Notes: generated by a model not told the origin, from the sequence alone. DNA of 64,000 nt from an uncultured Candidatus Saccharibacteria bacterium (GCA_964584895.1 CAZPAW010000002.1:194748-258747); one strand, 5' to 3'; positions 12,379 through 39,362 are shown, counted from the first letter of the stretch. A program made the numbers and translations.

Positions 12379-12453
12379 TCCCGGGTAGCTCAATGGTGGA
12401 GCAAGAAGCTGTTAACTTCGAGGTTGTCGGTTCGAGTCCGACCCCGGGAGCCA
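12379..12453 (+). tRNA. tRNA-Asn (anticodon GUU), CCA encoded
   Basis: Hand-folded cloverleaf: acceptor TCCCGGG/CCCGGGA, D arm GCTC/GAGC, anticodon loop CTGTTAA, T arm GTCGG-TTCGAGT-CCGAC, discriminator G plus CCA. Confidence 0.9.
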
Positions 12454-12475
12454 GACCCAGCACTAACAGAGGTAG

Positions 12476-12498
12476 ACCAGGTTCCTAGACCTGGTTTT
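12476..12498 (+). terminator. hairpin plus T-run downstream of tRNA-Asn
   Basis: ACCAGG-ttcctaga-CCTGGT followed by TTTT. Confidence 0.45.
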
Positions 12499-12706
12499 CT
12501 TATTTTCGTCAAACCACCTCTTATCTGTTATTTGGTTCGAGTCTGATTCATCTAAACTTATGTAAAGTAGTGTGGTTGTTGGAACCGAAAATAAGACAGA
12601 CGGTACCTGTTATTTCTTCTCTGTTTGGTTCTAAGCCTGACTGATTGTTCTATGACAAACAGGCAGGCTGAAAGCCGACCAGGCTCTGTGACCATCAATT
12701 ATTAGT

Positions 12707-13786
12707 TTAGTACCGACGTATTTGTCGGATTAGGCTATGTAGAACACCTCCGCTTTGCTCAAAGTCGGGTTGGCTGTGAAGATCTTCAATTTTTTCTTGA
12801 ACGCCATCGTCGATTTGCCACCTAGCTCCAACCAGAGCATCTGCTAAATATTCAGGCTTTGTAACGGCTGCAAGCACGACAGTGCTTTCACGAGTTGCAA
12901 GCCACGCAATAGCGGCTTGAGCCAAGTTATGGCTAGTAGTCTCAGCTTCGGAGGCTATTCCTTGCAGTAATCCAACAGTCTCAATCAATTGAACAATTAT
13001 TGGCGCTGGAGGCTGATCTATGGCTTCTGCTTCTTCCACTTCATGGCTTAATGCAGTCATTATCTCAGGAAGCCTTTTATTAGTTAAAACACCTTTTACT
13101 AAAGGACTATGAGCAAGTACAGTTAGTCCTTCATCATGTGCTAGCTCAACTTCGACTAGCTGCGATGGCGATAACATATTCACAAACGGCTGAGTCGCTG
13201 CTGGTCTTCTAAGTCCACGATCATCACATGCTTCCAGAAATGCTTCGAGTTGAGCAACACTATAGTTAGATAGCCCATATTCACGAATTTTCTCAGCTTC
13301 AATCAGTTCACTCATAGTTTCAGCGTGGGCTTCATGAGCAACTCGTTCATCTGGAACATGCAACTGATAAAGATCAATTATGCCCACATCATCACCAAGG
13401 ACAAGCAGACTCCTATCAACCTGATTGCGGATTCTCTCTGGTGTAGTGTCACCTTGATGACCTTCTTCACGCCATCTCATCTGCTGCTCAGCAGTTGTGC
13501 CAAGTCCAGTTTTTGTAGCGATTATTACTTCATTTCTTGGTAGCACTTCAGCGCTCACAGCTCTACCAATTGCCAGCTCAGTTCCGTAATTATCAGAGGT
13601 ATCAAATAATGTTATTCCAGCTTCGTGAGCACGCCTGAATGACTCAATGGTGTCGGCCGCGTCTAGTTTGTCACCCAAGTGGTACGTTCCGTAGCCAATA
13701 TTCGGGGAGGTTACAGGTATATCTCCTATATGAATAGCTTGTTCAGCTTCACTGAAACCTTCTGGTTGAGAATTCGACATACTCAA
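12707..13786 (-). CDS. aldo/keto reductase family oxidoreductase
   Basis: 359 aa. GYGTYHLGD..., ITLFDTSDNYG and IIATKTG fit the AKR pattern. Confidence 0.8.
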   Translation of the reverse strand: MSMSNSQPEGFSEAEQAIHIGDIPVTSPNIGYGTYHLGDKLDAADTIESFRRAHEAGITLFDTSDNYGTELAIGRAVSAEVLPRNEVIIATKTGLGTTAEQQMRWREEGHQGDTTPERIRNQVDRSLLVLGDDVGIIDLYQLHVPDERVAHEAHAETMSELIEAEKIREYGLSNYSVAQLEAFLEACDDRGLRRPAATQPFVNMLSPSQLVEVELAHDEGLTVLAHSPLVKGVLTNKRLPEIMTALSHEVEEAEAIDQPPAPIIVQLIETVGLLQGIASEAETTSHNLAQAAIAWLATRESTVVLAAVTKPEYLADALVGARWQIDDGVQEKIEDLHSQPDFEQSGGVLHSLIRQIRRY

Positions 13787-13853
13787 TAGTATGTTAGAGT
13801 AGTAATATTTCTACAAGCATTAACAGTATTGTCAAATTTATAAGCAGTATAGT

Positions 13854-15143
13854 TTGGAAGCCAACCTGATTAGGCTATGCGATACTATCAGTATGCCGAC
13901 AATTAACGGAACAATTTATCCTGAATCAAAACCGATACTTCATAACTTCAATGAGCTCAACATACTAATACTTGGAGAATTAGGTGACGACGTTGAACAG
14001 TTTGTAGCCAGTCTTGAGGTTCTCAAACGATATCTTATAGATGCAGGTCGTCCTGATATCAGTATCAAGCTTCATTGCACTAGCACTGCAACAGATACAG
14101 TGGCTAATAGATTAAATATTACTAAACATAGTATTAATCCTGTCACTCAAGAACAGCTGATAGAAGCAGTTATTAGCCTAGATATCGATATTGTCTTTGA
14201 TCAAGATGTTCAATTTGACCAAAAGTTCCTTTGGAGTAAATTCTATGAATTCGACGCGGTTAAATCCATCAATAAACTTCGAAGATCAGTAGAAGACTAC
14301 TTGGTTGGCAGCGGTATTGCTTGGACATTTGAAAGTCCAATATGGAACATGCCTCTTTTCATGAAGTATATGGCAGTGCCAGGTATTTGCATGGACTTTT
14401 TCACATTCATGGGCGAATGTGTAGAGAATCGAGGGTACACAGATGATCAAAAAGAAAAGGTTAGATATATAACCAACAAAATCAAACAGGTTGAGTATGC
14501 TCGTGACATTCTGCATTACCATATAAAGCGCATGCGAAAAGCAAGGCGCAATGGCATGTCTGATGATGATTACAACATTCAGCTTAACTATCACCTGAGC
14601 AACTTCTATTTCCTTTTAGCAGGCACATTAGACTCTTTAGCGAGACTAATCAATGATGTTTATAGATTAAAACTTACGAAATACTCTGACTTAGGGGTCG
14701 AAAAGAAGGGGTTCATTAATGCAAACCGCAAAAAACGAACAGGCTTCGTTAGCGTTTTTAATCTCAAGAAGCCCAAAAAATGGATCTCTTTTCTAAAGGA
14801 GCGTCGTAATTTTATAGCTCATGATGGAGATATGAGACAAACACCTATCGTAAAAGAGAAGAAAAAGAAACTAACAGATGAAGAGGTAAACAATATTGTA
14901 GACAGACAAGTTGACTGGGTATTGCTGGCACGTATATTACCTTCAGAAATATATCAGGCTCAGAGAGATCAAGCCGTAGAACTGACTAGAATCAAGAATA
15001 ATTATGAAGTAATTGCAGAAAAGATTATGATGGTGCCAAAAAAAGGAGGGATTAAAATGCACTCTCCACTTATAGATATTGATCATGATTACGAGCAGTT
15101 CGTGGAAATATTATCAAAGGCCTTAGACAGGCTTAAGAAGTAA
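13854..15143 (+). CDS. hypothetical protein with HEPN-like RX4H motif
   Basis: 429 aa (TTG start in the track; the ATG at 13893 is an alternative). ERRNFIAHDG contains R-x4-H inside a predicted helical C-terminal half, as in Abi/HEPN-type proteins. Assignment is tentative. Confidence 0.45.
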   Translation: MEANLIRLCDTISMPTINGTIYPESKPILHNFNELNILILGELGDDVEQFVASLEVLKRYLIDAGRPDISIKLHCTSTATDTVANRLNITKHSINPVTQEQLIEAVISLDIDIVFDQDVQFDQKFLWSKFYEFDAVKSINKLRRSVEDYLVGSGIAWTFESPIWNMPLFMKYMAVPGICMDFFTFMGECVENRGYTDDQKEKVRYITNKIKQVEYARDILHYHIKRMRKARRNGMSDDDYNIQLNYHLSNFYFLLAGTLDSLARLINDVYRLKLTKYSDLGVEKKGFINANRKKRTGFVSVFNLKKPKKWISFLKERRNFIAHDGDMRQTPIVKEKKKKLTDEEVNNIVDRQVDWVLLARILPSEIYQAQRDQAVELTRIKNNYEVIAEKIMMVPKKGGIKMHSPLIDIDHDYEQFVEILSKALDRLKK

Positions 15144-16431
15144 CTCCTTTTATAAATATTTGACCATTTTTAATGCTTAATTTTGAGACAATTCCTTCAG
15201 AAAGTGCTGTTTTCTCAAAATCTGTACCGCTTTGTAAAACGTACCTTGAGTACTCAATCAATGGCTGATCCAGCTTTTGACTAAACTTATAGTGTTTGAA
15301 TATGGCATCAGAAGTGTTTCGATGCTTTTCAGAAGCTGAAACTAGTTTGCTGCTAAACTTCATTTCTTGGTGGTTTGATTCTATAAAATTCTGGAGCAAT
15401 ACACATAAGTCCTTCTCATTTATATACTTTTCTTTGCAATTCGGATCAACTCGGCGTGTACAGTTGTAGTAGACGTGCCGATTGTACTCACCATTCTTTA
15501 GTTTCTTGAATTTCTCTTGAGCCGTGATATCAGCTCCACATCGACCGCACTTTAGTAAGCCACGAAAAGGGAAGCGCTTTGATCCCCAAACCCCTTTATT
15601 TGCTCCTCTCGTTTGCTGTACGTGCTCAAAGAGCTCTTTAGAGATAAGTGGCTTGTGAGCGCCTTTATACCATTTAGCACCCGGTCCTTCTGGGTATTGA
15701 AACTCTCCGTAGTAGAAAGGATTTTTCAGTAGAGCTAAAACTTGGCTTAACGTCACTGGGCCACCAGATCTACTAGTAAAGTTTTGATCGTCCAGCCAGT
15801 TCTTCGTTCTTCGACCACTCCAGCCCTCATAAGCTGTTTTCTTGAACACTTCGACAATAATTTCAGCACGTTCTGGATCAGGAATGATGTCTTTCACGCC
15901 ACCGAACGCTCTGTTGATATATCCAAGTGGGGCAACTCCAGGGCGCCAACCCATCTCACACTTGGTTCGTATGCCTCGTTTCACATTGATACTTTTGTTG
16001 TCATTTTCGAGCTTAGCTTGTGAGCACAGGATCATCAGCAGGAACTTCTCATTCGGGTTATTGCTGAAGGTTTGAGAGAAGGTTTTGATGTGTAGGAGCT
16101 TTCCTTGGTCCATGAGATCGACTATTGCGCCTAAGTCTCCTGCGTTCCTACTGAGCCTATCGGGAGCCCAAGTTAGCACTGCATTGTACTTACCCTCATC
16201 AATTCCTTTTAGCAGTTCATTATAGACTGGACGTTGCCCAGAGTCTTTAGCTGAATGACTTTCTTTTAATTCGCTGACGATATCAAGACTATCGTTTTCT
16301 GCCAGCGACCTCATCTCTTTCAGTTGCGAATCGACGGAGAGTGCTTGCTGTTCATCACCTTCAGATGATTTACGGGCATATAGGCAATATTTTAGTGGTG
16401 ATTGATCCTTATCTACCATGACCAGCAACAA
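15133..16431 (-). CDS. large serine recombinase
   Basis: 432 aa. Resolvase-type catalytic domain (YCLYARKSSEGD with the nucleophile Ser, WAPDRLSRN), a recombinase domain and a zinc ribbon (CGRCG...YYNCTRR). Probable true start is MVDKD at 16419. Paralogue at 32555..33838. Confidence 0.9.
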   Translation of the reverse strand: MLLVMVDKDQSPLKYCLYARKSSEGDEQQALSVDSQLKEMRSLAENDSLDIVSELKESHSAKDSGQRPVYNELLKGIDEGKYNAVLTWAPDRLSRNAGDLGAIVDLMDQGKLLHIKTFSQTFSNNPNEKFLLMILCSQAKLENDNKSINVKRGIRTKCEMGWRPGVAPLGYINRAFGGVKDIIPDPERAEIIVEVFKKTAYEGWSGRRTKNWLDDQNFTSRSGGPVTLSQVLALLKNPFYYGEFQYPEGPGAKWYKGAHKPLISKELFEHVQQTRGANKGVWGSKRFPFRGLLKCGRCGADITAQEKFKKLKNGEYNRHVYYNCTRRVDPNCKEKYINEKDLCVLLQNFIESNHQEMKFSSKLVSASEKHRNTSDAIFKHYKFSQKLDQPLIEYSRYVLQSGTDFEKTALSEGIVSKLSIKNGQIFIKGVTS

Positions 16432-16478
16432 GGTACCGCAATGGTTTTAGAAGTCCAGCGATATTGTAAAATTTAACT

Positions 16479-17129
16479 ATGACAAAAGTATTTGACGTAT
16501 TACCTGAAATTGAAAAGAAATTGATTAATTCATTAGCTGATTTTCTTAAAGCAGATGATGGCAAGTTTCACATGTGGGAAATTGCAGTATTTGTGCCGGC
16601 TGTAAATCAGTTTATCCACTATTTAAGTGGTCTCAATGCCTCTTTAGAGAAGAAGAATTACATTACGGCAATGAGCAGTTTGAGAGGAATGATAGAATCG
16701 CTGGCTGTTGTTATATATGATGGTACTGAAAAATTAACTGAGGAAGCCTACAAAGAATTTATGTCGAAAGGCAGGCTCCCAATATGGAACGACAAAAAGA
16801 AGAAATGGCGCAAGGTAACCAATAAGGAGCTCGTAAAAGGACTTGAAGATAAGCTCAAGATTAATGTTGTAGAGATATATGATCATACGAATGATTTGCT
16901 GCACTTTTCAGCTACGCACATGTCATTTTTAGGAGGTGCAAACCCACAGGAAGACAACGAAGAGAGAATAGCCAAAATACACGTAGGATCAGAAGATGAA
17001 ATACCCCCAGAAAAAGTAAAGGAAATTATTGAATATAGTGTCGAGCTAGCAGCACGATTAGGGGGCTGCATTGAATCAGGAATTGAAGAGAAGGAGCGAC
17101 GATCTATGCGCTCAAATCAAAAAAACTGA
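16479..17129 (+). CDS. hypothetical protein
   Basis: 216 aa. TAAAAT box lies exactly 6 nt before the ATG. No family recognised. Confidence 0.5.
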   Translation: MTKVFDVLPEIEKKLINSLADFLKADDGKFHMWEIAVFVPAVNQFIHYLSGLNASLEKKNYITAMSSLRGMIESLAVVIYDGTEKLTEEAYKEFMSKGRLPIWNDKKKKWRKVTNKELVKGLEDKLKINVVEIYDHTNDLLHFSATHMSFLGGANPQEDNEERIAKIHVGSEDEIPPEKVKEIIEYSVELAARLGGCIESGIEEKERRSMRSNQKN

Positions 17130-17141
17130 TCTAGACCGTAA

Positions 17142-18215
17142 CTAGATAACGAATTCACTAACTGCTTCGACTATCTTTTCTGCATTCTTCTCAACATATT
17201 CTGCTGGGATGTTTCCGAAAACTTTTAGCTCTGCATCTTCTACGTCAGTAACACCTTCTACATTAATATATTTCTTTAGCGTGTCGTGCAGACGTTTACG
17301 CTCAGCTTTATCAGGCATCCAAGCATAGCTGACTGTGATCGAGCCATCGGTATAGACAGATATGAAGGCATTCGGAGAGATCTCGTTGAACGTTGGGTTA
17401 AATGATCCTCTTTTTGTCCCTGAGCCCCAACGGACAATATCAGCATGCTTTAGCGACCAGTCATATAGCTTTCTGAGCGCAGCTACCTGTGACGGTGGAA
17501 GATTTTGTTCAACTTCTTGCCAATAAGACTGTTCATCCCATTTTCTTCGACCACCAGATTTCTTAGTACTACCCATGTCTTTCTTAACTTCCGTGCCGTA
17601 GATTTTTGGGATCATTATTTCGTACGTGTCGTGTTTGTAGTATTCAAGCTCTACTGCATAAACATCAAACTGACTGTTACGGTTAATGAACAGAATCAGG
17701 TCTTTCAACTGGCGATGCAGACTATCCATCAGTACAACGAACTTGAAGATGCCGTTGTTTAAGTTGTTCTGAATACTGTCTAGTAGCGTATCCGTAGCTT
17801 CCTGATCGATGCTAAAAAATTCTTGTAACTGCTCGTGCAGGCTTTTATCAAACTGTTTTTGAACATGTTTCTCTAGCTGGGAAGTGAAGTCAGTGAAATC
17901 GATCGAGCTAGTCCATAACGACGCACCGTAGTCTAGAACTTGAGCCACAACTGTCCGTTTGTCCGGATTTTTGTACAGTTTAGTCTCTATTAGGTATATG
18001 TTGCCATTCTGATCAACGCCTAAGGCGTCAATTGGACCACTGTCAGTAGGGAATTCACGCGCAAGTACGAGTAGTCGAATATCCTCGTCAATTTCATAAA
18101 CTGGAATCGCATCAGGATTGTTATAAATGTATTGCTGTAGGTAATCTTCTTGTTCGAAGCTGCTTTTGCTGACTCTACGAGCACCTTTGCCGTTTTCTGA
18201 AACTATTATCGCCAC
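17142..18215 (-). CDS. PD-(D/E)xK (NucS/DUF91-like) nuclease-domain protein
   Basis: 357 aa. N-terminal IDALGVDQNGNIYLIETKLYKNPDKRTVVAQVLDY fits the D...ExK...Q..Y pattern of NucS-type endonuclease domains. The C-terminal 250 aa are unassigned. Confidence 0.55.
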   Translation of the reverse strand: MAIIVSENGKGARRVSKSSFEQEDYLQQYIYNNPDAIPVYEIDEDIRLLVLAREFPTDSGPIDALGVDQNGNIYLIETKLYKNPDKRTVVAQVLDYGASLWTSSIDFTDFTSQLEKHVQKQFDKSLHEQLQEFFSIDQEATDTLLDSIQNNLNNGIFKFVVLMDSLHRQLKDLILFINRNSQFDVYAVELEYYKHDTYEIMIPKIYGTEVKKDMGSTKKSGGRRKWDEQSYWQEVEQNLPPSQVAALRKLYDWSLKHADIVRWGSGTKRGSFNPTFNEISPNAFISVYTDGSITVSYAWMPDKAERKRLHDTLKKYINVEGVTDVEDAELKVFGNIPAEYVEKNAEKIVEAVSEFVI

Positions 18216-18258
18216 TGGACCTCCTGGTTAGTTTGATCCTTCGTGGCTCACATAAAAG

Positions 18259-18355
18259 GACAGCCACGCTGGATGTTGAGATCCCAAGCAAGCAGATTAT
18301 GCCTACTCTTTTATGCGTAGCTGCCCATTTGTTGGCATAATCTACGCATACAAGC
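18259..18355. other. conserved structured non-coding block (copy A)
   Basis: GACAGCCACGCTGGA and ATGCCTACTCTTTT are shared with 35441-35536. The hairpin ATGCGTAG(18313-18320)/CTACGCAT(18342-18349) is replaced in copy B by GTACGT/ACGTAC, with two compensatory pair changes. Confidence 0.5.
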
Positions 18356-18427
18356 AATGCGCTCTGCATACTTGGAATCTCAACGCTAACATTGTACCGC
18401 TAACAGATGTAGATTGCTAGTTAATAG

Positions 18428-19882
18428 TTAAATGCGATAGTTCGGACCAAAGAGGTCAGACCGCTTGCCGAAACGTATCGTACCGACGTTTGATTGTTCA
18501 TTGTTGTGTTCCAGCACAGCTAGTGTCAGCGCGTCGACAAGGTCATCGTGTTTTTCTACTCCAAACCCAACTAATTGCGTAATCAGCTCGTCAACTCCGC
18601 GTTCAGGAAACAGTATTATTCCTCGGTTTATTTTGTCGGCAATCATGTTGAGCCGTGCACGTTTTTCCGCCTTTGGTACTGAGCCAGTTACGTCGAGTCC
18701 ATCTGCCATCAGCACCTGTACAACTGCTGCTTGGTAGCCAACTTGTTCAACGTACAGTTTTGGCTGATCTTCAGAAGTGCTTAGTTGTTTAAGCTGGTCA
18801 ATAGTGGCGCTAAACGATAGTCGTTTATTGACTGGATTTGGTCTTACATACATACGCATGTTTTCACCACTTCCGATCACGTCGATTGCAAGTATCGCAG
18901 TAAAGTCAGCCTTGTCGTGTTCTGAGATAGCCAAGTCCACTCCAACAATGACCCGTGAGTACTGATCCCGAACCGGATCGGGTACCCGCTTATAGTGATG
19001 GATCATTTTATGCGTAATTATCTGTTCATCATCTGGAACTAGATGCAACATATACTCACGCTCCCAAGCAATCCTATTAGCAACTGAACGCTCTAGCTTC
19101 TTCAATGCCTGCTGATCAGGGTACTTGTCTGGCCAGTTACTCTTGCCATCCGTCATGATTGGACATTGAACAAACTTGCCATCAAGTTCATCTCGCTCGA
19201 TTCGCTCTTTTAGGCGCATCAGCAGTGAATCTTCATGCAGTAAGTTCCCGACTACAATCTTTTTAGTACCAGTATCACCAGCCGGGATTATTTCACTTGT
19301 GTACCAGTCAAAGGTTTTGCTCCGGCCTTCTTTTGTTTTGACTGAACTAATATCCTCGACATCATCGGCAATGATGAGATCTGGACGGTGAGCACCATGT
19401 CTAATCCCTCGTACGCTCTGTTCAGTCGAGATTGCTGCGATTCGGGCATTAAACTTCGGAATGAACAGAGAAGTCGAACCCCATTCTTCACGCTGTTCAA
19501 CAAATGGTCCAAGATCATTTGTTAGCAGTTCATTGCTTTCAAGTTCACGCTTTATGTTTTTTAGGTGAACCCCTGCCTGGTAGGTGGTTTGACTAGCAAT
19601 CAGTACGAACTTCTTTTGCTGAACACCAAGCACTGCCCAGATTGGGTATGACATAGTCATGATTGTCGACTTAGCAGAGCCGCGGAAAGCCATTACAACG
19701 GCCAAACTTAAGTCCTCATCTTCCGACAAAGCAAACAGTTCTTTGTGAATGTCAGCTATGCCGTGAGTGATGTAAGCCGAGAAGTACATGGCAAAGAACC
19801 ATTGATGGCTTTTAGTTGTAATTTCAGAACGTAATTTTTGATTGTTAAACATTTGTTTGGTTAATTCGTTAGTTGTCATCAT
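18428..19882 (-). CDS. terL: phage terminase large subunit-like protein
   Basis: 484 aa. Walker A-like AFRGSAKST, Walker B DLIIADDVED, and C-terminal RNase H-like nuclease residues (VGVDLAISE, KHDDLVDALT). Confidence 0.85.
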   Translation of the reverse strand: MMTTNELTKQMFNNQKLRSEITTKSHQWFFAMYFSAYITHGIADIHKELFALSEDEDLSLAVVMAFRGSAKSTIMTMSYPIWAVLGVQQKKFVLIASQTTYQAGVHLKNIKRELESNELLTNDLGPFVEQREEWGSTSLFIPKFNARIAAISTEQSVRGIRHGAHRPDLIIADDVEDISSVKTKEGRSKTFDWYTSEIIPAGDTGTKKIVVGNLLHEDSLLMRLKERIERDELDGKFVQCPIMTDGKSNWPDKYPDQQALKKLERSVANRIAWEREYMLHLVPDDEQIITHKMIHHYKRVPDPVRDQYSRVIVGVDLAISEHDKADFTAILAIDVIGSGENMRMYVRPNPVNKRLSFSATIDQLKQLSTSEDQPKLYVEQVGYQAAVVQVLMADGLDVTGSVPKAEKRARLNMIADKINRGIILFPERGVDELITQLVGFGVEKHDDLVDALTLAVLEHNNEQSNVGTIRFGKRSDLFGPNYRI

Positions 19883-20315
19883 TTTCCTCCTTAGTGGTTA
19901 GTAGTCCGGCCATTTGCAAAGCACCTGACACCATTTCGGCTTGCTCAGGCGATAGTTCTTGCTGTTTGGCTTGAACAGTTGCATCAACCTGCACTCGTGT
20001 CGCATATGCACGGTGATGATGTTTCAGCCAAAAGATTATGGCTGTCATATTCTTTTCTTTTATCCCCGAGATTAATTGCGATTCAGCCATGTCATTGATT
20101 AGTCCCGCGCTCTGTTCAAGCGCATCGTCACAAGCATCAGCAAAGACCTCGTCAGCTTTTCTCCACCGATAGTAAGTACTGCGGGGGACGCCTGCTTGTT
20201 TACAGGCGACCTCCACAACTGGCGTTTTGCTTAATTTTTCTACTAGCTTTTGTTTGTCTTTTTCTTGGTTACGACTCATAGCTTCTTCCTTTTCTGGCCT
20301 GTTAACTTCTCCCAA
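19869..20315 (-). CDS. HTH protein, small-terminase-like
   Basis: 148 aa. HTH at VACKQAGVPRSTYYRWRK. It overlaps terL downstream and the ParB-methylase gene upstream. The role is inferred from position and size. Confidence 0.55.
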   Translation of the reverse strand: MGEVNRPEKEEAMSRNQEKDKQKLVEKLSKTPVVEVACKQAGVPRSTYYRWRKADEVFADACDDALEQSAGLINDMAESQLISGIKEKNMTAIIFWLKHHHRAYATRVQVDATVQAKQQELSPEQAEMVSGALQMAGLLTTKEENDDN

Positions 20316-21598
20316 CGCTTCATGATCACTTCTGCGTAAACAGGTGACTTCTCCATTAAGTTACAGCGACGTTTGAGCTTTTCGGCAGCAATAAGTGTTG
20401 ATCCTGACCCTCCGAACGGCTCAATTACTAGATCACCTCGTTTTGTCAGTACTTTCATGTAGGGAATTAGGATTGGTACAGGTTTAGTACCAAATATGAC
20501 TCCCTGACCGCTGTGTTTCTCATCTTCAGCTGAATGTTCGATGAAATCAGTCGGCACATACTTTTTGCCCTTACTGTGCTTCTCCCAATGCGGTTTACCC
20601 GCAATGGCAAAAAGGGCAGTTTCGTATTCTTCCTGTAGTGGCCCGGTTTCATCGTCGTAGTTGTATTCAACGCTACCGCTAGCGCCGAGCATTGCTATGT
20701 CATATTTCGAGAAAAACTTGTGCTGTGCAGCGAAGTTCTGGTGTCTATTGGCAAGGTGCCAGACGATCATATTACGCACCTGCCAATGTTTCTCCATTTC
20801 TGACCAAATAACGCGGAGATTTTTCCAATTTTCATACACCATAATGCTGAAGTCTGGTTTAGCGACTTTGGCAACGTTAGTCATCCAAAGTTCTGTGAAG
20901 TTTGGCGGTAACTCGTCGGTTTCTAAATACCTGCGATTCCGTTTGGCGCCAAAGCCTGTCGTTGCTTTGCCGTGACGCTTGCCTTGGAGGTAATTTAACA
21001 GATACGGAGGGTCCGTTTGGCAAAACGATGCTTGCTCGTTATTCATGAGTTTTAGAACGTCTGCTTCAATGGTCGAATCACCTACCATTACTCGATGCTC
21101 ACCAAGCTGATATACATCACCCTTCTTGGCTGAAACCTTTTTGATGTCTAGCTTCTTTAGTTCTTTTTGCAGATCGAAGTTTTCTGGTTCATCCAGGTCG
21201 ATGTCGAAGATGTCATCGAGTTCTTCACTCGTGAAACCAACGTCATCGAGTAACTTTTCATCGAACTCTGCTAGCAAGGAATAGTCCCACTCTCCCTGGT
21301 TCCTGTTCAAACGGAGGTTAAGTTCCTTTTCTTTTGCTTCGTCCGGAATGTCGACGTAGACAACTGGTACATCTTTAATACCAAGGTCTTTAGCGACCTT
21401 TAGTCTAAAGTGACCGCCGATAACGACGTTTTTGCGATCCTCAGCGCCGTTAACCAGAATAGGGTCGACTAGACCGAATCGCTTGATACTTTCTGTTAAA
21501 CCAGCAATGGCTTCATCTGACCAAGTACGTGGGTTGTACGTAGCAGCCTTAAGCTGACTGACCTTAATGTGTTTAATATTTAATTGTTCCTGAGACAT
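20276..21598 (-). CDS. ParB-like nuclease domain / DNA methyltransferase fusion
   Basis: 440 aa. ParB N-terminal domain (ATYNPRTWS, GGHFRLKVAK), then a methylase with TDPPY and EPFGGSGSTLIAAEKLKR. Confidence 0.85.
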   Translation of the reverse strand: MSQEQLNIKHIKVSQLKAATYNPRTWSDEAIAGLTESIKRFGLVDPILVNGAEDRKNVVIGGHFRLKVAKDLGIKDVPVVYVDIPDEAKEKELNLRLNRNQGEWDYSLLAEFDEKLLDDVGFTSEELDDIFDIDLDEPENFDLQKELKKLDIKKVSAKKGDVYQLGEHRVMVGDSTIEADVLKLMNNEQASFCQTDPPYLLNYLQGKRHGKATTGFGAKRNRRYLETDELPPNFTELWMTNVAKVAKPDFSIMVYENWKNLRVIWSEMEKHWQVRNMIVWHLANRHQNFAAQHKFFSKYDIAMLGASGSVEYNYDDETGPLQEEYETALFAIAGKPHWEKHSKGKKYVPTDFIEHSAEDEKHSGQGVIFGTKPVPILIPYMKVLTKRGDLVIEPFGGSGSTLIAAEKLKRRCNLMEKSPVYAEVIMKRWEKLTGQKRKKL

Positions 21599-21600
21599 AG

Positions 21601-21649
21601 AAAACTCCTTTCTGTCTCGCGGTTTACCTCACGAGCAGTCAGGAGTTTT
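21601..21649 (-). promoter_or_regulatory. 5'-UTR hairpin able to sequester the Shine-Dalgarno of the ParB-methylase gene
   Basis: AAAACTCCT (21601-21609) and AGGAGTTTT (21641-21649) are perfect 9 nt complements. On the minus-strand mRNA the 3' arm contains the AAGGAG Shine-Dalgarno just upstream of the ATG at 21598. Confidence 0.4.
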
Positions 21650-21889
21650 GTTGTTACAAACAAAAAAACAACCACTAGAAATAAACCATTTAGATTTATT
21701 TCCTCGAGCTGTTTTTTATCAAACTTGTTTAATCTCTTGGAAACGTGTTTTTAATAAAGTTCGAGCTAATGCTCAAAGAAAGTTTAGCAAAGAAAAACTT
21801 ACCACGCAACATCACAAACTCTTGTAAAGTCTTGCAAAACTACTGTATTTTTTATGCTCTTGGGGAAAATGTAAGCTATACTACTGTAA

Positions 21890-22735
21890 ATGAGTAAAGC
21901 AAAACCTTTTCTAAAATGGGCCGGTGGTAAATCTAGAATCGCGAACAAAATAGTCCAGTTCTTTCCCAAAGATTTCGACAAGTACTATGAACCTTTTCTT
22001 GGAAGTGGAGCAATATATTTTACAATTTCACCGCAAAAAGGTGTCTTAAATGATCTAAACAAGTACCTAATTGGAGTATACGAGACTATTCGCGACAATC
22101 CTCATGGGCTAATTAAAGCCCTTAGTAAAATAGATAAAGAATATCACTCTCTTCCAAATCTTGATAAGAAAGCCGAGTACTACTACGAGACACGAAAACG
22201 ATATAACAAAATGAATACGGCAGACACAAAAAAAGCCGCTTTATTCATATTCTTGAATAAAGCAGGATACAACGGAATGTACAGAGAAAATCGAAATGGT
22301 GATTATAATATCCCATTCGGGAAGCGAGAAAAGTGCCTGATCTGCGATAAGGACAATATATTAACAGTTTCGGAAGATCTATCAGATATAAAATTAAGTT
22401 CAGGGGATTACGCGAAGGCGCTGACATCTGCGAAAAAAAACGATTTAGTATATTTAGATCCACCATACATACCAGTAAGTAAAACTTCGAACTTCACCCA
22501 GTACCAGAAGGAAGGGTTTGGACGGGAAGAACAAATTAAGCTAAAAAAAATTGCTTTAGATTTACACAATAAAGGTTGCAAGGTTGTAATTAGTAACTCG
22601 TATTGTGAAGAAAGCATGAATCTCTACAGCGACAAAGCATTTACTATCAATAAAATTAGTGTAACGAGACAAATTCACTCAGCTAAAAAAATTGTTCCAG
22701 AGATAGTAGTTACCAACTTTAAAGCACAAGGATGA
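21890..22735 (+). CDS. Dam-type (D12 class) N6-adenine DNA methyltransferase
   Basis: 281 aa. KPFLKWAGGKSR, EPFLGSGA and YLDPPY appear in the Dam-family order. Confidence 0.9.
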   Translation: MSKAKPFLKWAGGKSRIANKIVQFFPKDFDKYYEPFLGSGAIYFTISPQKGVLNDLNKYLIGVYETIRDNPHGLIKALSKIDKEYHSLPNLDKKAEYYYETRKRYNKMNTADTKKAALFIFLNKAGYNGMYRENRNGDYNIPFGKREKCLICDKDNILTVSEDLSDIKLSSGDYAKALTSAKKNDLVYLDPPYIPVSKTSNFTQYQKEGFGREEQIKLKKIALDLHNKGCKVVISNSYCEESMNLYSDKAFTINKISVTRQIHSAKKIVPEIVVTNFKAQG

Positions 22736-22739
22736 ATTA

Positions 22740-24878
22740 ATGGATCTCTCGAAACTGCGACTGAAAGACTCATACTCTAGTGATACAGATGACATAGTAA
22801 ACCAGTTTTACAATCCTGTTCTATCGTGTGCTGTCTCTTATGATCGAATCACTGGTTATTTTTCACCAAGTATCCTATCAATAGTTTCAAGGGGTTTTGC
22901 AGGGATAATTCATAACAAAGGTAGAATACGTATTCTAACTAGCATTGAAGTCAATAAAGAATTATTTGAGGCAATTGATAGCGATAATTCACAAAAATTT
23001 GATGAAAAACTATTCAAGGAAATAGAGTTTGACATCGAATCCCTAAAGACCGAACTAGAAAAAGACTACCTTCGAGTATTCATGCACCTATATAAAACCG
23101 GAGCAATAGAGCTCAAAGTTGCAGTCCTGCAAGACAAGAGAGGAATTTTACATCAGAAAGTTGGTGTAGTTAAGGATTCTTTGAATAATGCAATTTCATT
23201 TAGTGGATCAAATAATGAAACTCCCGGAGGAGTGCTGAATAATATAGAGGAGTTTAAGGTTTTCAAAAATTGGATAATTTCCAGTTCGCCTTATTTTGCA
23301 AACGATCAGTCGAAATTTGATAAATATTGGAATAATGAAGTTAAGGGTATAAATGTAGTGGGGATTGACAATGCGGTAAAGGAAAAACTAGTAAACTTAA
23401 TCGACTCGAACGATGACTTAGAGAAAATTATTTCCAGAATAAAAACCAAAGAACAGAATAGCGCTGCCGACTATAATAGTGTTGAAACTCCACAGAGATC
23501 CCTGAGAGACTATCAGCAAGAAGCTATTAACCATTGGGTTAAAAATGGCTACAAATCTATGTTTGAAATGGCAACAGGCACTGGCAAAACTTTCACAGCA
23601 ATCAATGCCTTAAAAAAGTTTCACGATGATAAAAAATACTTAAGATCCGTCGTTGTCGTTCCTTTAACCACTTTAACCATTCAGTGGCAGGACGATGTAA
23701 AAGAATTATTTCCGAATATAACAATCATTAACACTTCAACAAACCATAAATGGAAAGACGAAGTAAACAACCTAATATTTTCCAGCGAACTCGGGCGAAA
23801 CAAAGATTACATTTTAATTACTACGTATTCCATGTTTACCAAGAAAGATTTTAATGAGAGGGTTAATAAACTAGGCGATGACATTGTTCTGCTAGCTGAC
23901 GAAATGCACAATTTAGTTAATAAAAATAGAATTAAATCTTTGAGTCATCCAAGTTATTTATACAAACTAGGGTTAAGCGCCACTCCTACAAGGTTATGGC
24001 AACAAGATGAAAGTTTAATTGTTCGTAAACATTTCGGTGACAATAGCTTTCAATATTCACTCGAGGACGCTATTAAAAACGGATTTCTGGTGCCATACAA
24101 CTATCACCCACTTCCAATAAATTTAACGATAGACGAGTTTGAAAGGTATCTAGAACTAAGTCGGCAAATCTCTCGTATTTCGAACTTCAAGTCTGAAACG
24201 AATAATGAAAATACAACCCTACATATGAAATTAATTGAAAGAGCCAGGATTAAGAAGAATGCTGAAAACAAGCTGTTTATGCTAGAGAGCTCCTTAAGAA
24301 AACTACAGATTGAAGGTCCGCTACAGAACACGTTAATCTATGTTGATAACGAAGACTTTCTTAAAGACCTACAAATAATGTTGTCCAATAACAACATCAG
24401 AACAACCAAATTCACAGGAGACAACACTTTGGCTGAACGCATATCAGCAATAGACAGCCTTAGGAGTCACTCGATCAATGCAATTGTTGCGATAAAGTGT
24501 TTAGACGAAGGAGTTGATATTCCATCGGCCAAGTTAGCATTTTTCTTATCAAATAACACTGATCCCAGAGAATATGTCCAAAGGCTCGGGAGGGTATTGC
24601 GTTTAGATAAAAAAAGCAATAAGACCATTTCTGAGATTTACGACTACATTGTTTTCCCGCCCACTGAAGTACAATTTGACAATGAAAAAGACAGAAAAAT
24701 CACCAGAAATATGGTTAAAAATGAACTAATCAGGGCTCACTTTTTCAATCAATTGTCGTCAAACTCTAGTTCTGCACAAGATATTATCGATGATGCAGTT
24801 GACAAATACGGTTTTTATTTTGAGGAAAATGAGTTAACCTATAATCAGGGAGAAGAAGATGAATTTGCTGACAGATGA
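22740..24878 (+). CDS. PLD-nuclease domain / SF2 helicase fusion protein
   Basis: 712 aa. N-terminal HxK(x4)D motif LHQKVGVVKD, then helicase Walker A MATGTGKTF, DEAH-like ADEMHN and motif VI QRLGRVLR. Confidence 0.85.
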   Translation: MDLSKLRLKDSYSSDTDDIVNQFYNPVLSCAVSYDRITGYFSPSILSIVSRGFAGIIHNKGRIRILTSIEVNKELFEAIDSDNSQKFDEKLFKEIEFDIESLKTELEKDYLRVFMHLYKTGAIELKVAVLQDKRGILHQKVGVVKDSLNNAISFSGSNNETPGGVLNNIEEFKVFKNWIISSSPYFANDQSKFDKYWNNEVKGINVVGIDNAVKEKLVNLIDSNDDLEKIISRIKTKEQNSAADYNSVETPQRSLRDYQQEAINHWVKNGYKSMFEMATGTGKTFTAINALKKFHDDKKYLRSVVVVPLTTLTIQWQDDVKELFPNITIINTSTNHKWKDEVNNLIFSSELGRNKDYILITTYSMFTKKDFNERVNKLGDDIVLLADEMHNLVNKNRIKSLSHPSYLYKLGLSATPTRLWQQDESLIVRKHFGDNSFQYSLEDAIKNGFLVPYNYHPLPINLTIDEFERYLELSRQISRISNFKSETNNENTTLHMKLIERARIKKNAENKLFMLESSLRKLQIEGPLQNTLIYVDNEDFLKDLQIMLSNNNIRTTKFTGDNTLAERISAIDSLRSHSINAIVAIKCLDEGVDIPSAKLAFFLSNNTDPREYVQRLGRVLRLDKKSNKTISEIYDYIVFPPTEVQFDNEKDRKITRNMVKNELIRAHFFNQLSSNSSSAQDIIDDAVDKYGFYFEENELTYNQGEEDEFADR

Positions 24879-25047
24879 TATGTCCTCAGCTATTGATAAT
24901 GCAAAATTATCCAGTGGTGACAAGGGCAAACTTAAAAAAATACTTTACCAAGAGCGCCAAAACAAGGAGCGTGTTTGGGACAAAGACGCAGAAAAATTCA
25001 TATCAAAACTGATTGATGAAGATACAAAGGAGCAGTCAGAGAAATGA
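24859..25047 (+). CDS. small hypothetical protein
   Basis: 62 aa. It overlaps both neighbouring genes (20 nt and 4 nt) inside a tightly packed operon. No other support. Confidence 0.3.
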   Translation: MNLLTDDMSSAIDNAKLSSGDKGKLKKILYQERQNKERVWDKDAEKFISKLIDEDTKEQSEK

Positions 25048-26960
25048 TTGTTTTTCATCATATAAAAATTAAACAGTTTAGAGCTTATGAAGATGTGTCG
25101 GTTAGCCTTGATGCAAACAAAGGCGTCATTCTCATGCATGGGGACAATGGATCTGGTAAATCCACTCTATTAAATGCAATCAACTGGTGCTTGTACGGAG
25201 ACACTCCGTTTTACACAACCACCAAAGTAACCGCTGTTTTAAATCGACATGCACCAAAAGGGTCGACTGCAGAGGTCGAAATCATTGCTAGTATCGAGGA
25301 TAAGAAGTATAGATTCTACCGTAAAACCGATTCAGATGCTGCGCCGGGTGGAATGCTTGAAGTGTCTTACGAAACTAACGGAGACTGGACTGTTCTAGAT
25401 GGAGCTGCAGGCAACGACGCAGTGAGAAGAATTCTGCCAAAAGACATTAGACATCTATTCTTTTTTAACGGAGAGAGGTTAAAGGACATCTTTTCTCACA
25501 ATAGCGATCATGACTTAAAGTCTAGTGTATATAAAGTTGCTGAGCTGAACGTCATTGATAACGCAGTCAAACACCTAAAATCTGTTGAAGATTCGTACTT
25601 AAAACAGATTAGTAAGGTCAGTAAAAATTCAAGAAAAATTGAAGAGCTTAAAGATGCGAAAGAAACATTTGAACGTGCAATTAATGGTCATGACGAGGTC
25701 TTGGAAGAACAAAGACAAGAAAAGAGAAAACTGAAAGCTCAAATAGCAGAGCTGGACAAGCTTATAAAAGATACTGCATTAGCCAGGGAGTACCTATCTC
25801 AACGTGACGTAGCCAAAGAACGATTGGCGGAAGCTGAAGAAAGATTGCAAACTGCCAAATTAAATCAAACTGATTTGTTCCAAAAAAATTATCATAAATT
25901 GCTGTTGTCTGACCAAATTGCTGATTACAAAAAGGCTCTGGAGTCAGCAAAAGACGCGGGCGCAATACCTCCACCAGTAAATCCTAAAGTCACAAGCGAA
26001 ATACTTAAAAGCAAGGTATGTATTTGCGGTAGGCACATTACTAAATCTGAAACTGAATTTATCGAAAAACAACATGCAGATTATAGAGCTAAAGACCAGC
26101 TTAGATTCTTGACTGACGGAATCTTCACATTTGCCGATCTTGGTACAAAAATACAGGATATTAGGTACGAATTTTTAGATACAACAGATGTAATTGATGA
26201 ATCTACCCAGAAAAAACAAGAATTACAGGAAACTCTATCGAAAATTAACGAAAGTCTTTCGGAAATAGATCAAAGCAAGATGCATGATAATCCTGAAGCA
26301 CGACGTACAAAACTAGAAAATAAGATGAGTAATTTAGACATGCTCATCGGCGGAGCGGCGAATGAAAAGGTAAAAATTGAAGATAAGCTAAAAGAGACCG
26401 AGCGTGAATTAAGAAAAAGCATATCTGAAGACAAATCTACGTCTGAGTTGGAAGATAAACGAGAAACAGCAGAACGCCTTTATAAGAAACTCCAAGAGAT
26501 AAAAGTTAACATGGAGACAGCAATAAGAACCAAGCTGCAGTCTAGCGTTTGGCAGACTTTTTCTAAGATATTGCCAGATACTAACTTTAATCGCATAGAG
26601 ATAGACGAAAATTATGACATTTCATTAATCGCCAATGACGGCACTACATATACAACCAACATTCTTTCCGTAGGACAAACAAAAGCTTTGGGTCTATCAC
26701 TGGCATATGGATTATCTAAGGATCTTGGGTACCAGGAGATTCCACTATTAATAGACAACTTATACGGTGACCTAAGCGAAGCACATTTTGCTGATGTTAC
26801 AAACATGATTAGTTCTTTGGCCGCAGACAAACAGGTTATTATTATGGATCTAAATGTCGAGAAGACCAGTAAAATGTTTGATAGTGGAATTATTTCACAG
26901 AAGTTCTTAATTAAGAGATCTGCAGACGACAATCAGACTATTATTGAGGAGATCAAGTAA
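25044..26960 (+). CDS. SMC-like ATPase, DndD/SbcC-like
   Basis: 638 aa. P-loop GDNGSGKSTLLNAINWCLYG, a long Lys/Glu coiled coil with a central CICGRH, C-terminal LSVGQTKAL and the Walker-B-like PLLIDNLYGDLS (compare the DndD-type IDTPLGRLD pattern). Confidence 0.8.
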   Translation: MIVFHHIKIKQFRAYEDVSVSLDANKGVILMHGDNGSGKSTLLNAINWCLYGDTPFYTTTKVTAVLNRHAPKGSTAEVEIIASIEDKKYRFYRKTDSDAAPGGMLEVSYETNGDWTVLDGAAGNDAVRRILPKDIRHLFFFNGERLKDIFSHNSDHDLKSSVYKVAELNVIDNAVKHLKSVEDSYLKQISKVSKNSRKIEELKDAKETFERAINGHDEVLEEQRQEKRKLKAQIAELDKLIKDTALAREYLSQRDVAKERLAEAEERLQTAKLNQTDLFQKNYHKLLLSDQIADYKKALESAKDAGAIPPPVNPKVTSEILKSKVCICGRHITKSETEFIEKQHADYRAKDQLRFLTDGIFTFADLGTKIQDIRYEFLDTTDVIDESTQKKQELQETLSKINESLSEIDQSKMHDNPEARRTKLENKMSNLDMLIGGAANEKVKIEDKLKETERELRKSISEDKSTSELEDKRETAERLYKKLQEIKVNMETAIRTKLQSSVWQTFSKILPDTNFNRIEIDENYDISLIANDGTTYTTNILSVGQTKALGLSLAYGLSKDLGYQEIPLLIDNLYGDLSEAHFADVTNMISSLAADKQVIIMDLNVEKTSKMFDSGIISQKFLIKRSADDNQTIIEEIK

Positions 26961-27397
26961 TGAGCGATATTAAATGGCCAGGTATTTCGATAACCGAAGA
27001 CGACAGTGAACTTGCAACAAGAATCATTAAACAAGATGGAATACTGCGAAATATTGATCAAAAAGATTTACTAATGTTAGCAGCAGCGCTTGCCATAAAG
27101 ACCAATGCACCAGATGTAATCGCAAAATCTACCAAAAGAAAGGATGTTACCCACCAAAGTTTGATTAATGGAGAAAACTACAGCGAATATCGCCAATATA
27201 TTTCGATGATATATTACCAAACGGAAGGCAAAAAAGATCTTAAAAGCATGGCCGATCCTAAAGCAATGGTAGATAACTTCGTTAATTATGCACGGCGAGG
27301 TTTGCACTTGTTGAGAGCCGAGTATCTGGAGTCTAAGGATTCCGACGAAGCATTACTCAAAGACTTTGTAGAACTTCTTAAAAAAACTTCAAGATAG
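26960..27397 (+). CDS. hypothetical protein, possibly DndE-like
   Basis: 145 aa. Its start overlaps the stop of the ATPase gene. Size, position directly after a DndD-like gene, and segments LLMLAAALAIKTN and YARRGLHLL recall DndE. Weak, from memory only. Confidence 0.35.
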   Translation: MSDIKWPGISITEDDSELATRIIKQDGILRNIDQKDLLMLAAALAIKTNAPDVIAKSTKRKDVTHQSLINGENYSEYRQYISMIYYQTEGKKDLKSMADPKAMVDNFVNYARRGLHLLRAEYLESKDSDEALLKDFVELLKKTSR

Positions 27398-27403
27398 CCT
27401 CAA

Positions 27404-27931
27404 TTACTCATTGCTCTCAGTCTCGAGTATCTCTAATAGATTAGGGTTATCTTTCCGCAAAGTCATATTCGGTCCATTCGGAATTGACCTAGCTTTAATT
27501 TTGCCTTGCCTGATTAACTTTCGAATGGTCTGTATATGTAGCCCTGAACGATAAGACAGGCTAGTATCCGGAATGGACTTCTCGTGTTTGTAATCTCCGC
27601 ATAATGATCCTGGGATCTTCTTTCTGTTTACTGCATCTTGGCAGTTCATACACTTAAAACCCCATTTGTCGTACCAGCCGTCTGTCTCATAGACACTTAT
27701 GCCACACAGTGAGCAATTACGACCCTTACCGGGCATGGAAAAGCCCTTAGGTTCATCTTTGAGTCTGGCTTTACGTTCTCGCTCCTCCATGTCCATTTGA
27801 ACCAGAAGATCGATAAAATTAACAAGGTTATCGGCAGACTGTCGCATTTCCAAGTCTGATTTGTATTTAACACCTTCTTTTTCGCTTAGTTTTCTAAACT
27901 CTTCGTGATCCTTGTCTTTTAATGTGACCAT
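27404..27931 (-). CDS. zinc-ribbon plus HTH protein (possible excisionase-like DNA binder)
   Basis: 175 aa. CSLCG...CMNC zinc ribbon and a C-terminal HTH-like LHIQTIRKLIRQGKIKA. AAAGGAG Shine-Dalgarno upstream. Lies at the right end of element A. Confidence 0.45.
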   Translation of the reverse strand: MVTLKDKDHEEFRKLSEKEGVKYKSDLEMRQSADNLVNFIDLLVQMDMEERERKARLKDEPKGFSMPGKGRNCSLCGISVYETDGWYDKWGFKCMNCQDAVNRKKIPGSLCGDYKHEKSIPDTSLSYRSGLHIQTIRKLIRQGKIKARSIPNGPNMTLRKDNPNLLEILETESNE

Positions 27932-27932
27932 A

Positions 27933-28076
27933 TCATTTCTCCTTTTTGGTTGATGATTGTTTCGATTTGTAGTCTTTGTATATATCTAGGATCAGCTGGG
28001 CAAGCTTCATTGCTTCTTTTTTGATCTCCTCGCTAGTAGGTGATTGGGTTTGTTTGTTTCTTGATACGTATGCCAT
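27933..28076 (-). CDS. small hypothetical protein
   Basis: The ATG at 28076 is preceded by AAGGAGG. The 47 aa form is preferred over the 68 aa track ORF. Confidence 0.35.
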   Translation of the reverse strand: MAYVSRNKQTQSPTSEEIKKEAMKLAQLILDIYKDYKSKQSSTKKEK

Positions 28077-28154
28077 AAAAACCTCCTTAATGTAGTGGCA
28101 GATGAGACTACCTTTTATAGGGTGTCCTAATTGTCTCATTTACCTCTGTTAAGG

Positions 28155-30730: not shown

Positions 30731-30739
30731 AATATAAGT

Positions 30740-31099: not shown

Positions 31100-31148
31100 G
31101 ATTTGTTTGTTAGTTCAAGCAATACCTTTAATTTAACGTGGAGAATAT

Positions 31149-39346: not shown

Positions 39347-39362
39347 CAAGTATTCTCGGGGT

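Follow-up and report, generated by a model that had tools for sequence, protein, structure and literature searches.

Two related integrative elements stand in tandem at a single tRNA-Asn gene in a 64,000-nucleotide stretch of DNA from an uncultured Candidatus Saccharibacteria bacterium (GCA_964584895.1, CAZPAW010000002.1:194748-258747; the whole stretch is hereafter the window), and each encodes a small terminase-like protein (TerS), a large terminase subunit (TerL) and a ParB-methyltransferase fusion. These elements, termed E1 and E2, belong to a large family of integrative elements, 13-26 kb in size, in Candidatus Saccharibacteria, and we lean, with little more than even confidence, to the view that they use phage-derived TerS and TerL to load their own DNA into the capsids of helper phages. 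Since an intact and complete terminase is kept in the absence of a capsid, the satellite idea is the simplest explanation, and a helper-dependent, satellite-like lifestyle appears to be the best reading of the gene content, with capsid hijacking as its presumed means.

The packaging cassette
Both elements harbour on the minus strand the same triad of ParB-methyltransferase, TerS-like protein and TerL, identified from the listing of open reading frames (ORFs) and from Pfam and PHROG scans covering window ORFs of 100 amino acids (aa) or more (Table 1). Neighbouring frames within each triad overlap, and in this the preliminary description of the DNA, which had named the same three genes in both copies, was accurate. 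The TerS-like proteins also match Pfam HTH_Tnp_1_2 and Sf6_terminase; the true start of TerS1 is probably the ATG at 20279, as its alignment to TerS2 opens at residue 13. The methyltransferase fusions were recognised by Pfam at E-values of 1e-12 and 1e-17, and by phrog_498 at about 1e-87 (4e-88). No conserved DNA was detected upstream of the two methyltransferase genes (PMT1 and PMT2) when these regions were compared.

All core ORFs are unbroken in both copies, and the core genes are kept by strong purifying selection: the ratios of non-synonymous to synonymous substitution (dN/dS; Nei-Gojobori, unsaturated pairs, across many pairs) are 0.03 for TerL, 0.05 for TerS, 0.025 for the methyltransferase and 0.034 for the recombinase described below, and reach 0.043 and 0.2 for two further conserved proteins, u490 and u116. 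The Walker motifs and acidic nuclease residues by which a functional TerL is recognised were found in 47 sequences, and the catalytic residues are invariant in all 47 aligned TerLs. In the ATPase these comprise Walker A FRGSxKS (66-72), R158/R161 (arginine finger), Walker B DDVED (173-177) and GNLLH (212-216, motif III), and in the RNase H-like nuclease D316, D326, E379 and D446/D447/D450. The preliminary description had held that TerL proteins lacking such residues would reduce the elements to decayed prophage remnants; the residues are in place.

The two copies are paralogous and diverged, with identities of 48% for TerL, 57% for TerS and 73% for the methyltransferase. Their cores are mosaic, in that the methyltransferases and recombinases (70%) are far more alike than the terminase subunits, and TerL2 falls with another subclade (loci L038 and L039; L numbers denote the homologous loci collected below). 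This mosaic divergence is consistent with selection for separate packaging specificities in elements that share one cell.

Boundaries and integration
Ordinary chromosomal genes occupy the edges of the window (ATP synthase, SmpB and tRNA-Asn on the left; adenylate kinase, Nudix and pyrimidine genes on the right), and the island bounded by attachment (att) sites runs from 12454 to about 53829, or 41.4 kb, which corresponds to the 41 kb of the preliminary description. The sequence at 12429-12492, formed by the last 25 nt of tRNA-Asn and 39 nt downstream, is repeated at 28155-28218, and a third copy of the core, ATGGGGAGCCA, stands at ~53805-53829, directly past the last island gene. In a three-way alignment of these sites, attL and the hybrid junction have the core and the rightward sequence in common, and the hybrid junction and attR have the core and the leftward sequence in common, attR then running into unrelated host DNA; this pattern indicates that two related elements were inserted successively at one tRNA. 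The crossover takes place within the short core, which in the window reads GGGAGCCA. Additional fragments resembling the tRNA T-arm and the recombinase-arm motif (GGTTCGAGTCTGATTC, AGTTCGAACCC and GTTCCCTAGACCT) are seen near the att sites, at 12500-12560 and 28320-28395, which suggests remnants of older insertions at a tRNA-Asn hotspot.

Each element encodes one large serine recombinase (SR1 and SR2), downstream of the triad on the same strand and separated from it by some variable genes; no window ORF within the scanned range matched Phage_integrase, the domain of tyrosine recombinases. The tRNA genes flanking members of the family are those for Asn, Gln or Ser. In 15 loci such a gene is found downstream of the recombinase, a few hundred bases to ~6 kb away, on the opposite strand and with its 3' end toward the element, and its identity varies with the recombinase subgroup; this adjacency, together with the att repeats, argues that the recombinase acts as the integrase. 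At L038 the 3' end of tRNA-Ser is repeated exactly, over 22 nt, just outside the distal gene u490, and this repeat delimits a 13.1 kb element; similar repeats are present at L022. One metagenome scan for an unoccupied attB, using the core and host flank, returned a single chance match inside an unrelated gene.

Excision
Loci integrated at tRNA-Gln supply both the occupied and the joined forms of the att site. The recombinase-side arm meets the tRNA gene at TGGCTG in L032 and L035 (attL), and the distal arm is found after TGGCTG beside the host flank in L032 and L042 (attR). In L041 and L026, which come from different metagenome-assembled genomes (MAGs), both arms meet directly around TGGCTG, and the join lies between the recombinase and u490, the arrangement of an attP site. 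These junctions represent an excised circle or a head-to-tail concatemer, and indicate that the elements are able to excise. Identity between element and tRNA extends over only ~6-8 bp, which fits a serine recombinase, with the crossover inside the last 6-8 nt of the tRNA gene. Terminal direct repeats, a sign of circular assembly, were not found on the full contigs.

Distribution and gene order
Scans with TerL as the query yielded 43 loci from the genome collection, nearly all in Saccharibacteria MAGs of different species, and 79 more from IMG/VR; the TerL homologues, on contigs of up to 1.29 Mb, carry the names Candidatus Saccharibacteria or Saccharimonadales, which makes the host a Saccharibacterium (TM7, candidate phyla radiation). 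ORFs of these loci were called and then clustered, and relatives were inspected with 10 kb flanks. TerL was recovered in 114 loci, the methyltransferase in 89, TerS in 80 and the recombinase in 50. The island layout is repeated in more than 80 loci, mostly Saccharibacteria MAGs, so that the family which the preliminary description expected from two diverged copies does exist, and is large, with its modules intact. The conserved order is methyltransferase, TerS, TerL, variable cargo and recombinase. More fully, the 5' part is formed by u490 (on the opposite strand), often an S24 LexA/CI-type repressor (PF00717, 9e-18), sometimes a small HNH gene, a gene for 190-250 aa and the methyltransferase; the 3' part consists of TerS, TerL, u116 or DUF4352, 0-8 kb of variable cargo, sometimes DUF4268, and the serine recombinase. 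The S24 repressor, and the genes without assigned function that precede the methyltransferase in relatives, are absent from the window. Six IMG/VR loci of one island subclade (L060, L066, L069, L074, L075 and L092) carry a tandem pair of TerL paralogues, both full-length, ahead of the recombinase; in the tree the first copies cluster together and the second copies likewise, which indicates that the duplication is old and has been retained.

No published description of these elements was found in the literature searched. In the preprint by Shaiber et al. (10.1101/2020.04.29.069278), TM7 terminases and prophages are listed only in supplementary tables.

Phage ancestry
The closest relatives of the cassette outside the family reside in phages. 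IMG/VR loci with TerL proteins 43-59% identical have the island layout, and those with TerL proteins 35-43% identical (L083, L088, L093, L094, L096, L098 and L100) are head-tail phages. L088 (IMG/VR 3300029288_007077) carries a collinear methyltransferase-TerS-TerL cassette with 35/28/42% identity to E2, and its TerL is followed by a portal gene (phrog_2662, 3e-107), a protease or scaffold gene, a major head protein gene (phrog_10) and a tail gene. The same order of methyltransferase, TerL, portal (phrog_64) and major head protein (phrog_1328) is seen in L093, and in L094 the methyltransferase is likewise upstream of TerL. The homologous cassettes thus differ in what follows: the phage TerL leads into portal, protease, capsid and tail genes, whereas the island TerL leads into an RNA, cargo and the recombinase. 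When the TerLs were placed in a neighbour-joining tree, every recombinase-linked sequence fell into a single clade, and the sister of this clade was that of the portal-linked phage TerLs, L083, L088, L097 and L098 among them; of the four 'portal' families that served as tree labels, two were verified with PHROG, and the other two inferred from size and position. It follows that the islands arose once from such a phage. The elements retain only the front of the late operon of this ancestor, namely the ParB-methyltransferase, TerS and TerL, and have been maintained through deep divergence with no capsid module.

A cassette of phage origin from which all other phage modules are missing could also be what is left of two decaying prophages, defective remnants that have lost their structural genes and whose terminase genes are becoming pseudogenes. 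We regard this as highly improbable and reject it, as dN/dS values of 0.03-0.05 over many pairs, invariant motifs and intact core ORFs all speak against decay, and the same truncated layout is conserved in dozens of species within one deep clade, in which TerL identity falls to ~43%. Protein divergence of 43-70% excludes conservation as an artefact of very recent spread, and complete elements of 13-14 kb with functional att sites and an attP form are present.

Searches for virion and other modules
The preliminary description had found no portal, capsid, protease, tail, lysis or replication genes in the 41 kb, and the Pfam and PHROG scans bear it out: no island ORF of at least 100 aa matched a portal, capsid, protease, tail or lysis gene, and no primase, helicase-loader or Rep domain was detected in either element. 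In L038 and L041, both of them complete elements, the larger ORFs that had lacked an assignment likewise gave no structural gene with PHROG or Pfam. The PHROG method did detect portal and capsid genes in phages with a related cassette, which provides a positive control. AlphaFold models of u490 and u116, the best-conserved proteins without assigned function (mean confidence, pLDDT, of 79 and 86), returned no fold match in BFVD or PDB at E <=1e-3 and no virion fold; a concealed capsid or portal in the unassigned ORFs was rejected on these scans and on the fold searches with the two models. The portal, capsid, tail, lysis and replication modules that define a functional tailed prophage were not found in the window. 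Nor were the features of integrative conjugative or mobilizable elements, that is relaxase and oriT or a conserved FtsK translocase with Rep; no relaxase was found in the window elements, and a conjugative element built on the FtsK-like gene of E2 was rejected because this gene is limited to E2 and not conserved in other loci.

The virion genes might reside elsewhere, in the chromosome or in a resident prophage, with the island supplying packaging specificity only, in the manner of a gene transfer agent or other split system. Of the genome itself 64 kb were inspected, and of the relatives the flanks to 10 kb; prophages are reported to be common in oral TM7 in the preprint of Shaiber et al. (10.1101/2020.04.29.069278). 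We nevertheless consider this arrangement unlikely, in that att-bounded, self-excising elements of variable copy number are more in keeping with a mobile parasite than with a host function that has been domesticated; moreover, if the capsids came from a resident prophage, that prophage would be the helper and the proposal would merge with the satellite explanation.

The terminase could also act without any virion, processing or translocating element DNA either to produce unit-length linear molecules for uptake by competent neighbours or to serve replication or resolution of the element. The failure to find virion genes or a replication module, the lack of a known helper, and the FtsK-like translocase and HNH nuclease that E2 carries in addition are in keeping with such a role. 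To our knowledge, however, all characterised TerL proteins act on a portal; the FtsK-like gene lacks conservation across the family, and the closest relatives of the cassette reside in ordinary head-tail phages, so that we think a capsid-independent terminase very unlikely.

A conserved structured RNA downstream of TerL
A structured RNA of ~140 nt, encoded immediately 3' of TerL1 in E1, has a second copy in E2 and constitutes a well-supported new RNA family. Its DNA is near-identical among loci whose proteins differ. A nucleotide profile search (nhmmer) and a covariance model placed it in 23 positions (window, L001, L003, L006, L011-L014, L016, L018, L023, L025, L027-L029, L033, L036, L040, L043, L047, L048 and L051), always just 3' of TerL or u116, with two diverged copies besides; it has no Rfam match, and the phages related through the cassette did not yield it. 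An invariant GGTAyAAT box, similar to a -10 element, precedes the RNA, and its 3' end is a terminator-like hairpin with a U run (in E2 the hairpin is at 35460-35441). The closing helix of 20 bp is 96% paired, with 11 pairs changed on both sides; a second helix has three compensatory pairs, and a variable hairpin lies between the two. The minimum free energy of the E2 copy is -57 kcal/mol (z -7.4). The small ORFs that overlap this region (18175-18369 and 35315-35536; 64-73 aa) were considered as protein-coding genes and set aside, as near-identity of the DNA and compensatory base changes favour an RNA.

One loop, GGCAGCUACG, is invariant and can pair without mismatch to the 3' half of the terminator, which is itself invariant. 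This complementarity suggests a pseudoknot or an anti-terminator switch, and GGCAGCUACG and CGUGGCUGUC would be the RNA segments on which such a switch model bears.

Cargo and accessory genes
Across the family the cargo consists mainly of restriction-modification and other defence genes, with a copper cluster in some members, in agreement with the preliminary description, which had noted that satellites carry defence genes in hotspots; here these genes occupy the variable slots of mobile elements. The upstream slot of E1 gave PADLOC matches to PbeA (5e-198), PbeC (2e-63) and MTase_II (5e-86), with which Pfam agrees. In E2 the metal-resistance genes sit between the att site and SR2, and the same genes are found inside or flanking the elements in L029, L036, L040, L049 and L050. 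The type I restriction-modification operon of E2 (39312-43608) contains two HsdS genes, one half-size (208 aa) and one full (399 aa), with an ORF of 333 aa between HsdM and the second HsdS, and a 28-nt imperfect repeat links 40378-40405 with 43452-43479; this layout may be a specificity-shuffling arrangement.

In many family members u116 lies directly 3' of TerL, and u490 adjoins the distal att site in L038. The distal-end genes of E1 have no Pfam or PHROG match, and one of them, u175, shows no similarity to u490; to regard them as a regulator or a directionality factor would be speculative. The FtsK-like protein of E2 has a motor domain ~40% identical to bacterial FtsK and a 220-aa N-terminus without assigned function, and neither this gene nor the adjacent HNH gene is conserved in other loci; the pair could be a nested module or provide an alternative DNA-transfer function. 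The cargo slot of the 13.1 kb element at L038 holds a 519-aa fusion (L038:13264-14823) of a helix-turn-helix (HTH) domain, an S24 (LexA/CI/UmuD-like) peptidase and a DNA methyltransferase, which may be an SOS-cleavable methyltransferase.

With defence genes in every variable slot and a terminase homologous to that of a real phage lineage, one could imagine that TerS and TerL are kept mainly as a decoy that sabotages packaging by related phages, competing for procapsids or cutting phage concatemers, in a tRNA-integrated defence island that moves by other means such as natural transformation. Known satellites do interfere with helper packaging. A pure decoy, however, would not need an intact nuclease and ATPase, a TerS and a co-conserved methyltransferase at dN/dS ~0.03; the attP forms show that the element itself mobilises, and interference and self-packaging can coexist. 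We hold the decoy proposal to be rather doubtful.

Table 1. Features of the two elements and their att sites (window coordinates unless a locus is named).
Feature	Position	Strand	Basis or remark
tRNA-Asn (GTT), integration target	12379-12453	+	ARAGORN, Rfam
attL: tRNA-Asn 3' end + E1 recombinase-side arm	12429-12492		Repeat search, three-way att alignment
E1, ~15.7 kb, integrative, terminase-only	about 12454-28179	-	attL + hybrid junction
E1 aldo-keto reductase, between att site and recombinase	12707-13786	-	Pfam
E1 HEPN-like protein, 429 aa, between att site and recombinase	13854-15143	+	Pfam
SR1, large serine recombinase, presumed integrase	15133-16431	-	Pfam Resolvase + Recombinase + Zn_ribbon_recom
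E1 TerL-recombinase slot: 216-aa ORF without assigned function	within 16479-18215	+	
E1 PDC-S11 candidate defence protein, 357 aa	17142-18215	-	PADLOC, E 3e-20
Structured RNA, copy 1	18251-18387	-	Covariance model R1, 133 bits; overlaps ORF 18175-18369
TerL1, terminase large subunit	18428-19882	-	phrog_38 'terminase large subunit', E 6e-72; ATPase + nuclease motifs intact
TerS1, small-terminase-like HTH protein	19869-20315	-	TerS PHROGs, E 1e-10
PMT1, ParB_N + N6_N4 methyltransferase fusion	20276-21598	-	Pfam + phrog_498
E1 upstream slot: type II/Dam-like methyltransferase, PbeA-like PLD-helicase, PbeC/DndD-like ATPase, 145-aa protein	21890-27397	+	
E1 distal-end genes beside att site: 175-aa Zn-finger protein (u175), 68-aa ORF	27404-28139	-	
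Hybrid att junction E1/E2: E1 distal arm, core GGGAGCCA, E2 recombinase-side arm	28155-28218	+	
E2, ~25.6 kb, integrative, terminase-only	about 28180-53829	-	Hybrid junction + attR
E2 metal-resistance cargo: CsoR repressor, P-type copper ATPase (CopA), 119-aa protein, DUF305, 207-aa protein	28434-32524	+	Pfam
SR2, large serine recombinase	32555-33838	-	Pfam; 70% identical to SR1
E2 TerL-recombinase slot: DUF4357 / PDC-S14 candidate defence protein	within 33877-35396	+	PADLOC, E 4e-68
E2 EEP-family nuclease, 226 aa	within 33877-35396	-	Pfam
Structured RNA, copy 2	35433-35577	-	Covariance model R1, 136 bits; overlaps ORF 35315-35536
u116, small conserved protein	35608-35958	-	15 loci; dN/dS 0.2
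TerL2	35989-37446	-	phrog_38, E 5e-71
TerS2	37424-37843	-	TerS PHROGs, E 3e-8
PMT2, ParB_N + N6_N4 methyltransferase fusion	37840-39159	-	Pfam + phrog_498
E2 upstream slot: type I restriction-modification (HsdS, HsdM, 333-aa protein, HsdS, HsdR), YgjP-like metallopeptidase, DUF2779 (Cas4-like)	39312-48821	+	Pfam, PADLOC
E2-specific genes: 141-aa protein, FtsK/SpoIIIE-type ATPase (49258-50712)	48818-52235	+	Pfam
E2 506-aa protein: excisionase-type HTH + C-terminal HNH nuclease	50715-52235	+	PHROG HNH, E 3e-10
u490, conserved Zn-ribbon protein, element distal end	52210-53682	+	405 homologues; dN/dS 0.043
attR: E2 distal arm + core (ATGGGGAGCCA), then host flank	about 53805-53829	+	
attP junctions	L041:12330-12420, L026:11490-11580		Compared with L032:17-90, L032:19290-19345, L035:19000-19050

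Relation to known satellites
The elements work most like phage-inducible chromosomal islands (PICIs, e.g. the Staphylococcus aureus pathogenicity islands, SaPIs) or PICI-like tycheposons, and have a large serine recombinase as integrase in common with the PICI-like elements of Vibrio cholerae (PLEs). With PICIs they share a site-specific island form of ~10-25 kb without virion genes, accessory and defence cargo, an own TerS to redirect packaging and, in many members, a divergent repressor and operon layout; the absence of virion and lysis genes and the size of about 10-20 kb typical of PICIs are also seen here, with element sizes of 13.1-25.6 kb. They differ from PICIs in having a large serine recombinase and not a tyrosine integrase, a full TerL and a ParB-methyltransferase, and a host of the candidate phyla radiation, and in that a primase-replicase (pri-rep) module and recognisable capsid-remodelling genes were not found. 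Capsid-forming PICIs also encode their own TerS, TerL and HNH protein (the last found here in E2, at 50715-52235, and in some relatives), but they provide capsid, portal, protease and connectors as well and steal only tails; no such genes were found here. The Pfam and PHROG scans detected no domain of the P4-like hallmarks (psu/delta/sid, alpha primase, P4-type integrase, cos site). The resemblance to a phage satellite put forward in the preliminary description is fair, whereas assignment to the PICI type does not hold, as tyrosine integrase, pri-rep and P4 hallmarks were not found. The large serine recombinases, the tRNA-Asn att sites, the RNA after TerL and the FtsK-like and HNH genes of E2 had gone unmentioned there.

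PLEs are satellites with a large serine recombinase that manipulate the packaging motor of the helper, and their excision needs a directionality factor encoded by that helper; a similar dependence would explain why no such factor is visible here. They differ in having their own replication initiator and probably unrelated genes, in using the helper's TerL, in integrating into a repeat and not a tRNA gene, and in belonging to another host phylum. The gene set specific to PLEs and their helper ICP1 includes RepA, NixI and TcaP; in the PHROG scans of the elements no satellite gene was matched. Tycheposons, as presented in their preprint (10.1101/2020.12.28.424599), target tRNA genes in streamlined Prochlorococcus genomes and form tandem arrays with modular cargo; some of them resemble PICIs and have either TerS or a capsid gene, and a minority have large serine recombinases. 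The same source describes mostly tyrosine recombinases and replication modules, and PICI-like members without cargo or TerL (10.1101/2020.12.28.424599), whereas here packaging genes and cargo stand together and TerL is universal. Integration at a tRNA, partial tRNA repeats, a tandem array and cargo modules are nonetheless all found in the elements of the window.

A possible life cycle
If the elements are satellites, infection or induction of a phage of the related lineage, or an SOS signal acting through the S24 repressor that many members carry, would lead to excision. The TerS of the element would recognise a pac site on the element, and its TerL would cut the DNA and pump it into helper procapsids; the resulting particles would deliver the element, defence cargo included, to further cells, in which the recombinase would reinsert it at a tRNA. 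A probable task of the ParB-methyltransferase is to mark or protect the DNA, or to aid pac recognition, and the RNA probably governs how far transcription of the packaging operon reads through into cargo and recombinase.

Several points weigh against this scheme. Neither particles nor a helper phage have been seen, nor has packaging; membership in IMG/VR may reflect the terminase hallmark gene only, and not encapsidation. The attP junction could stem from head-to-tail tandem copies and not from free circles. Neither element has a recognisable replication module or recombination directionality factor, and a pac site was not identified. The S24 repressor common in relatives is absent from both window copies, so that their induction signal is not explained by it. 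The TerL would need to dock on a foreign portal, and structural genes may sit elsewhere in the host genome, of which the window comprises 64 kb. We know of no characterised satellite with TerS and TerL that lacks capsid genes, and the mechanism is therefore without direct precedent.

A bolder version of the satellite reading would make these elements a packaging-only class and the main vehicle for the exchange of genes and defence systems in Saccharibacteria, whose private terminase and RNA load helper capsids without the helper terminase, or to its exclusion; the RNA would then be an immunity or antitermination switch like the P4 CI RNA, or a motor adaptor like the phi29 pRNA. We think this fairly unlikely.

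Implications for Saccharibacteria
Saccharibacteria are ultra-small epibionts with genomes of ~1 Mb, which have become genetically tractable only recently and whose routes of gene transfer and defence against phages are poorly known. A widespread family that excises actively and shuttles restriction-modification, Pbe-like, candidate defence and copper resistance genes would be a major part of their mobilome, and an element with TerS and TerL only would widen the range of satellite strategies, which now extends from TerS alone to a whole capsid module. The sister clade of phages offers a route to unknown phages of Saccharibacteria, and the serine recombinases, together with the tRNA att sites defined for them, are candidates for use as integration tools in these bacteria.

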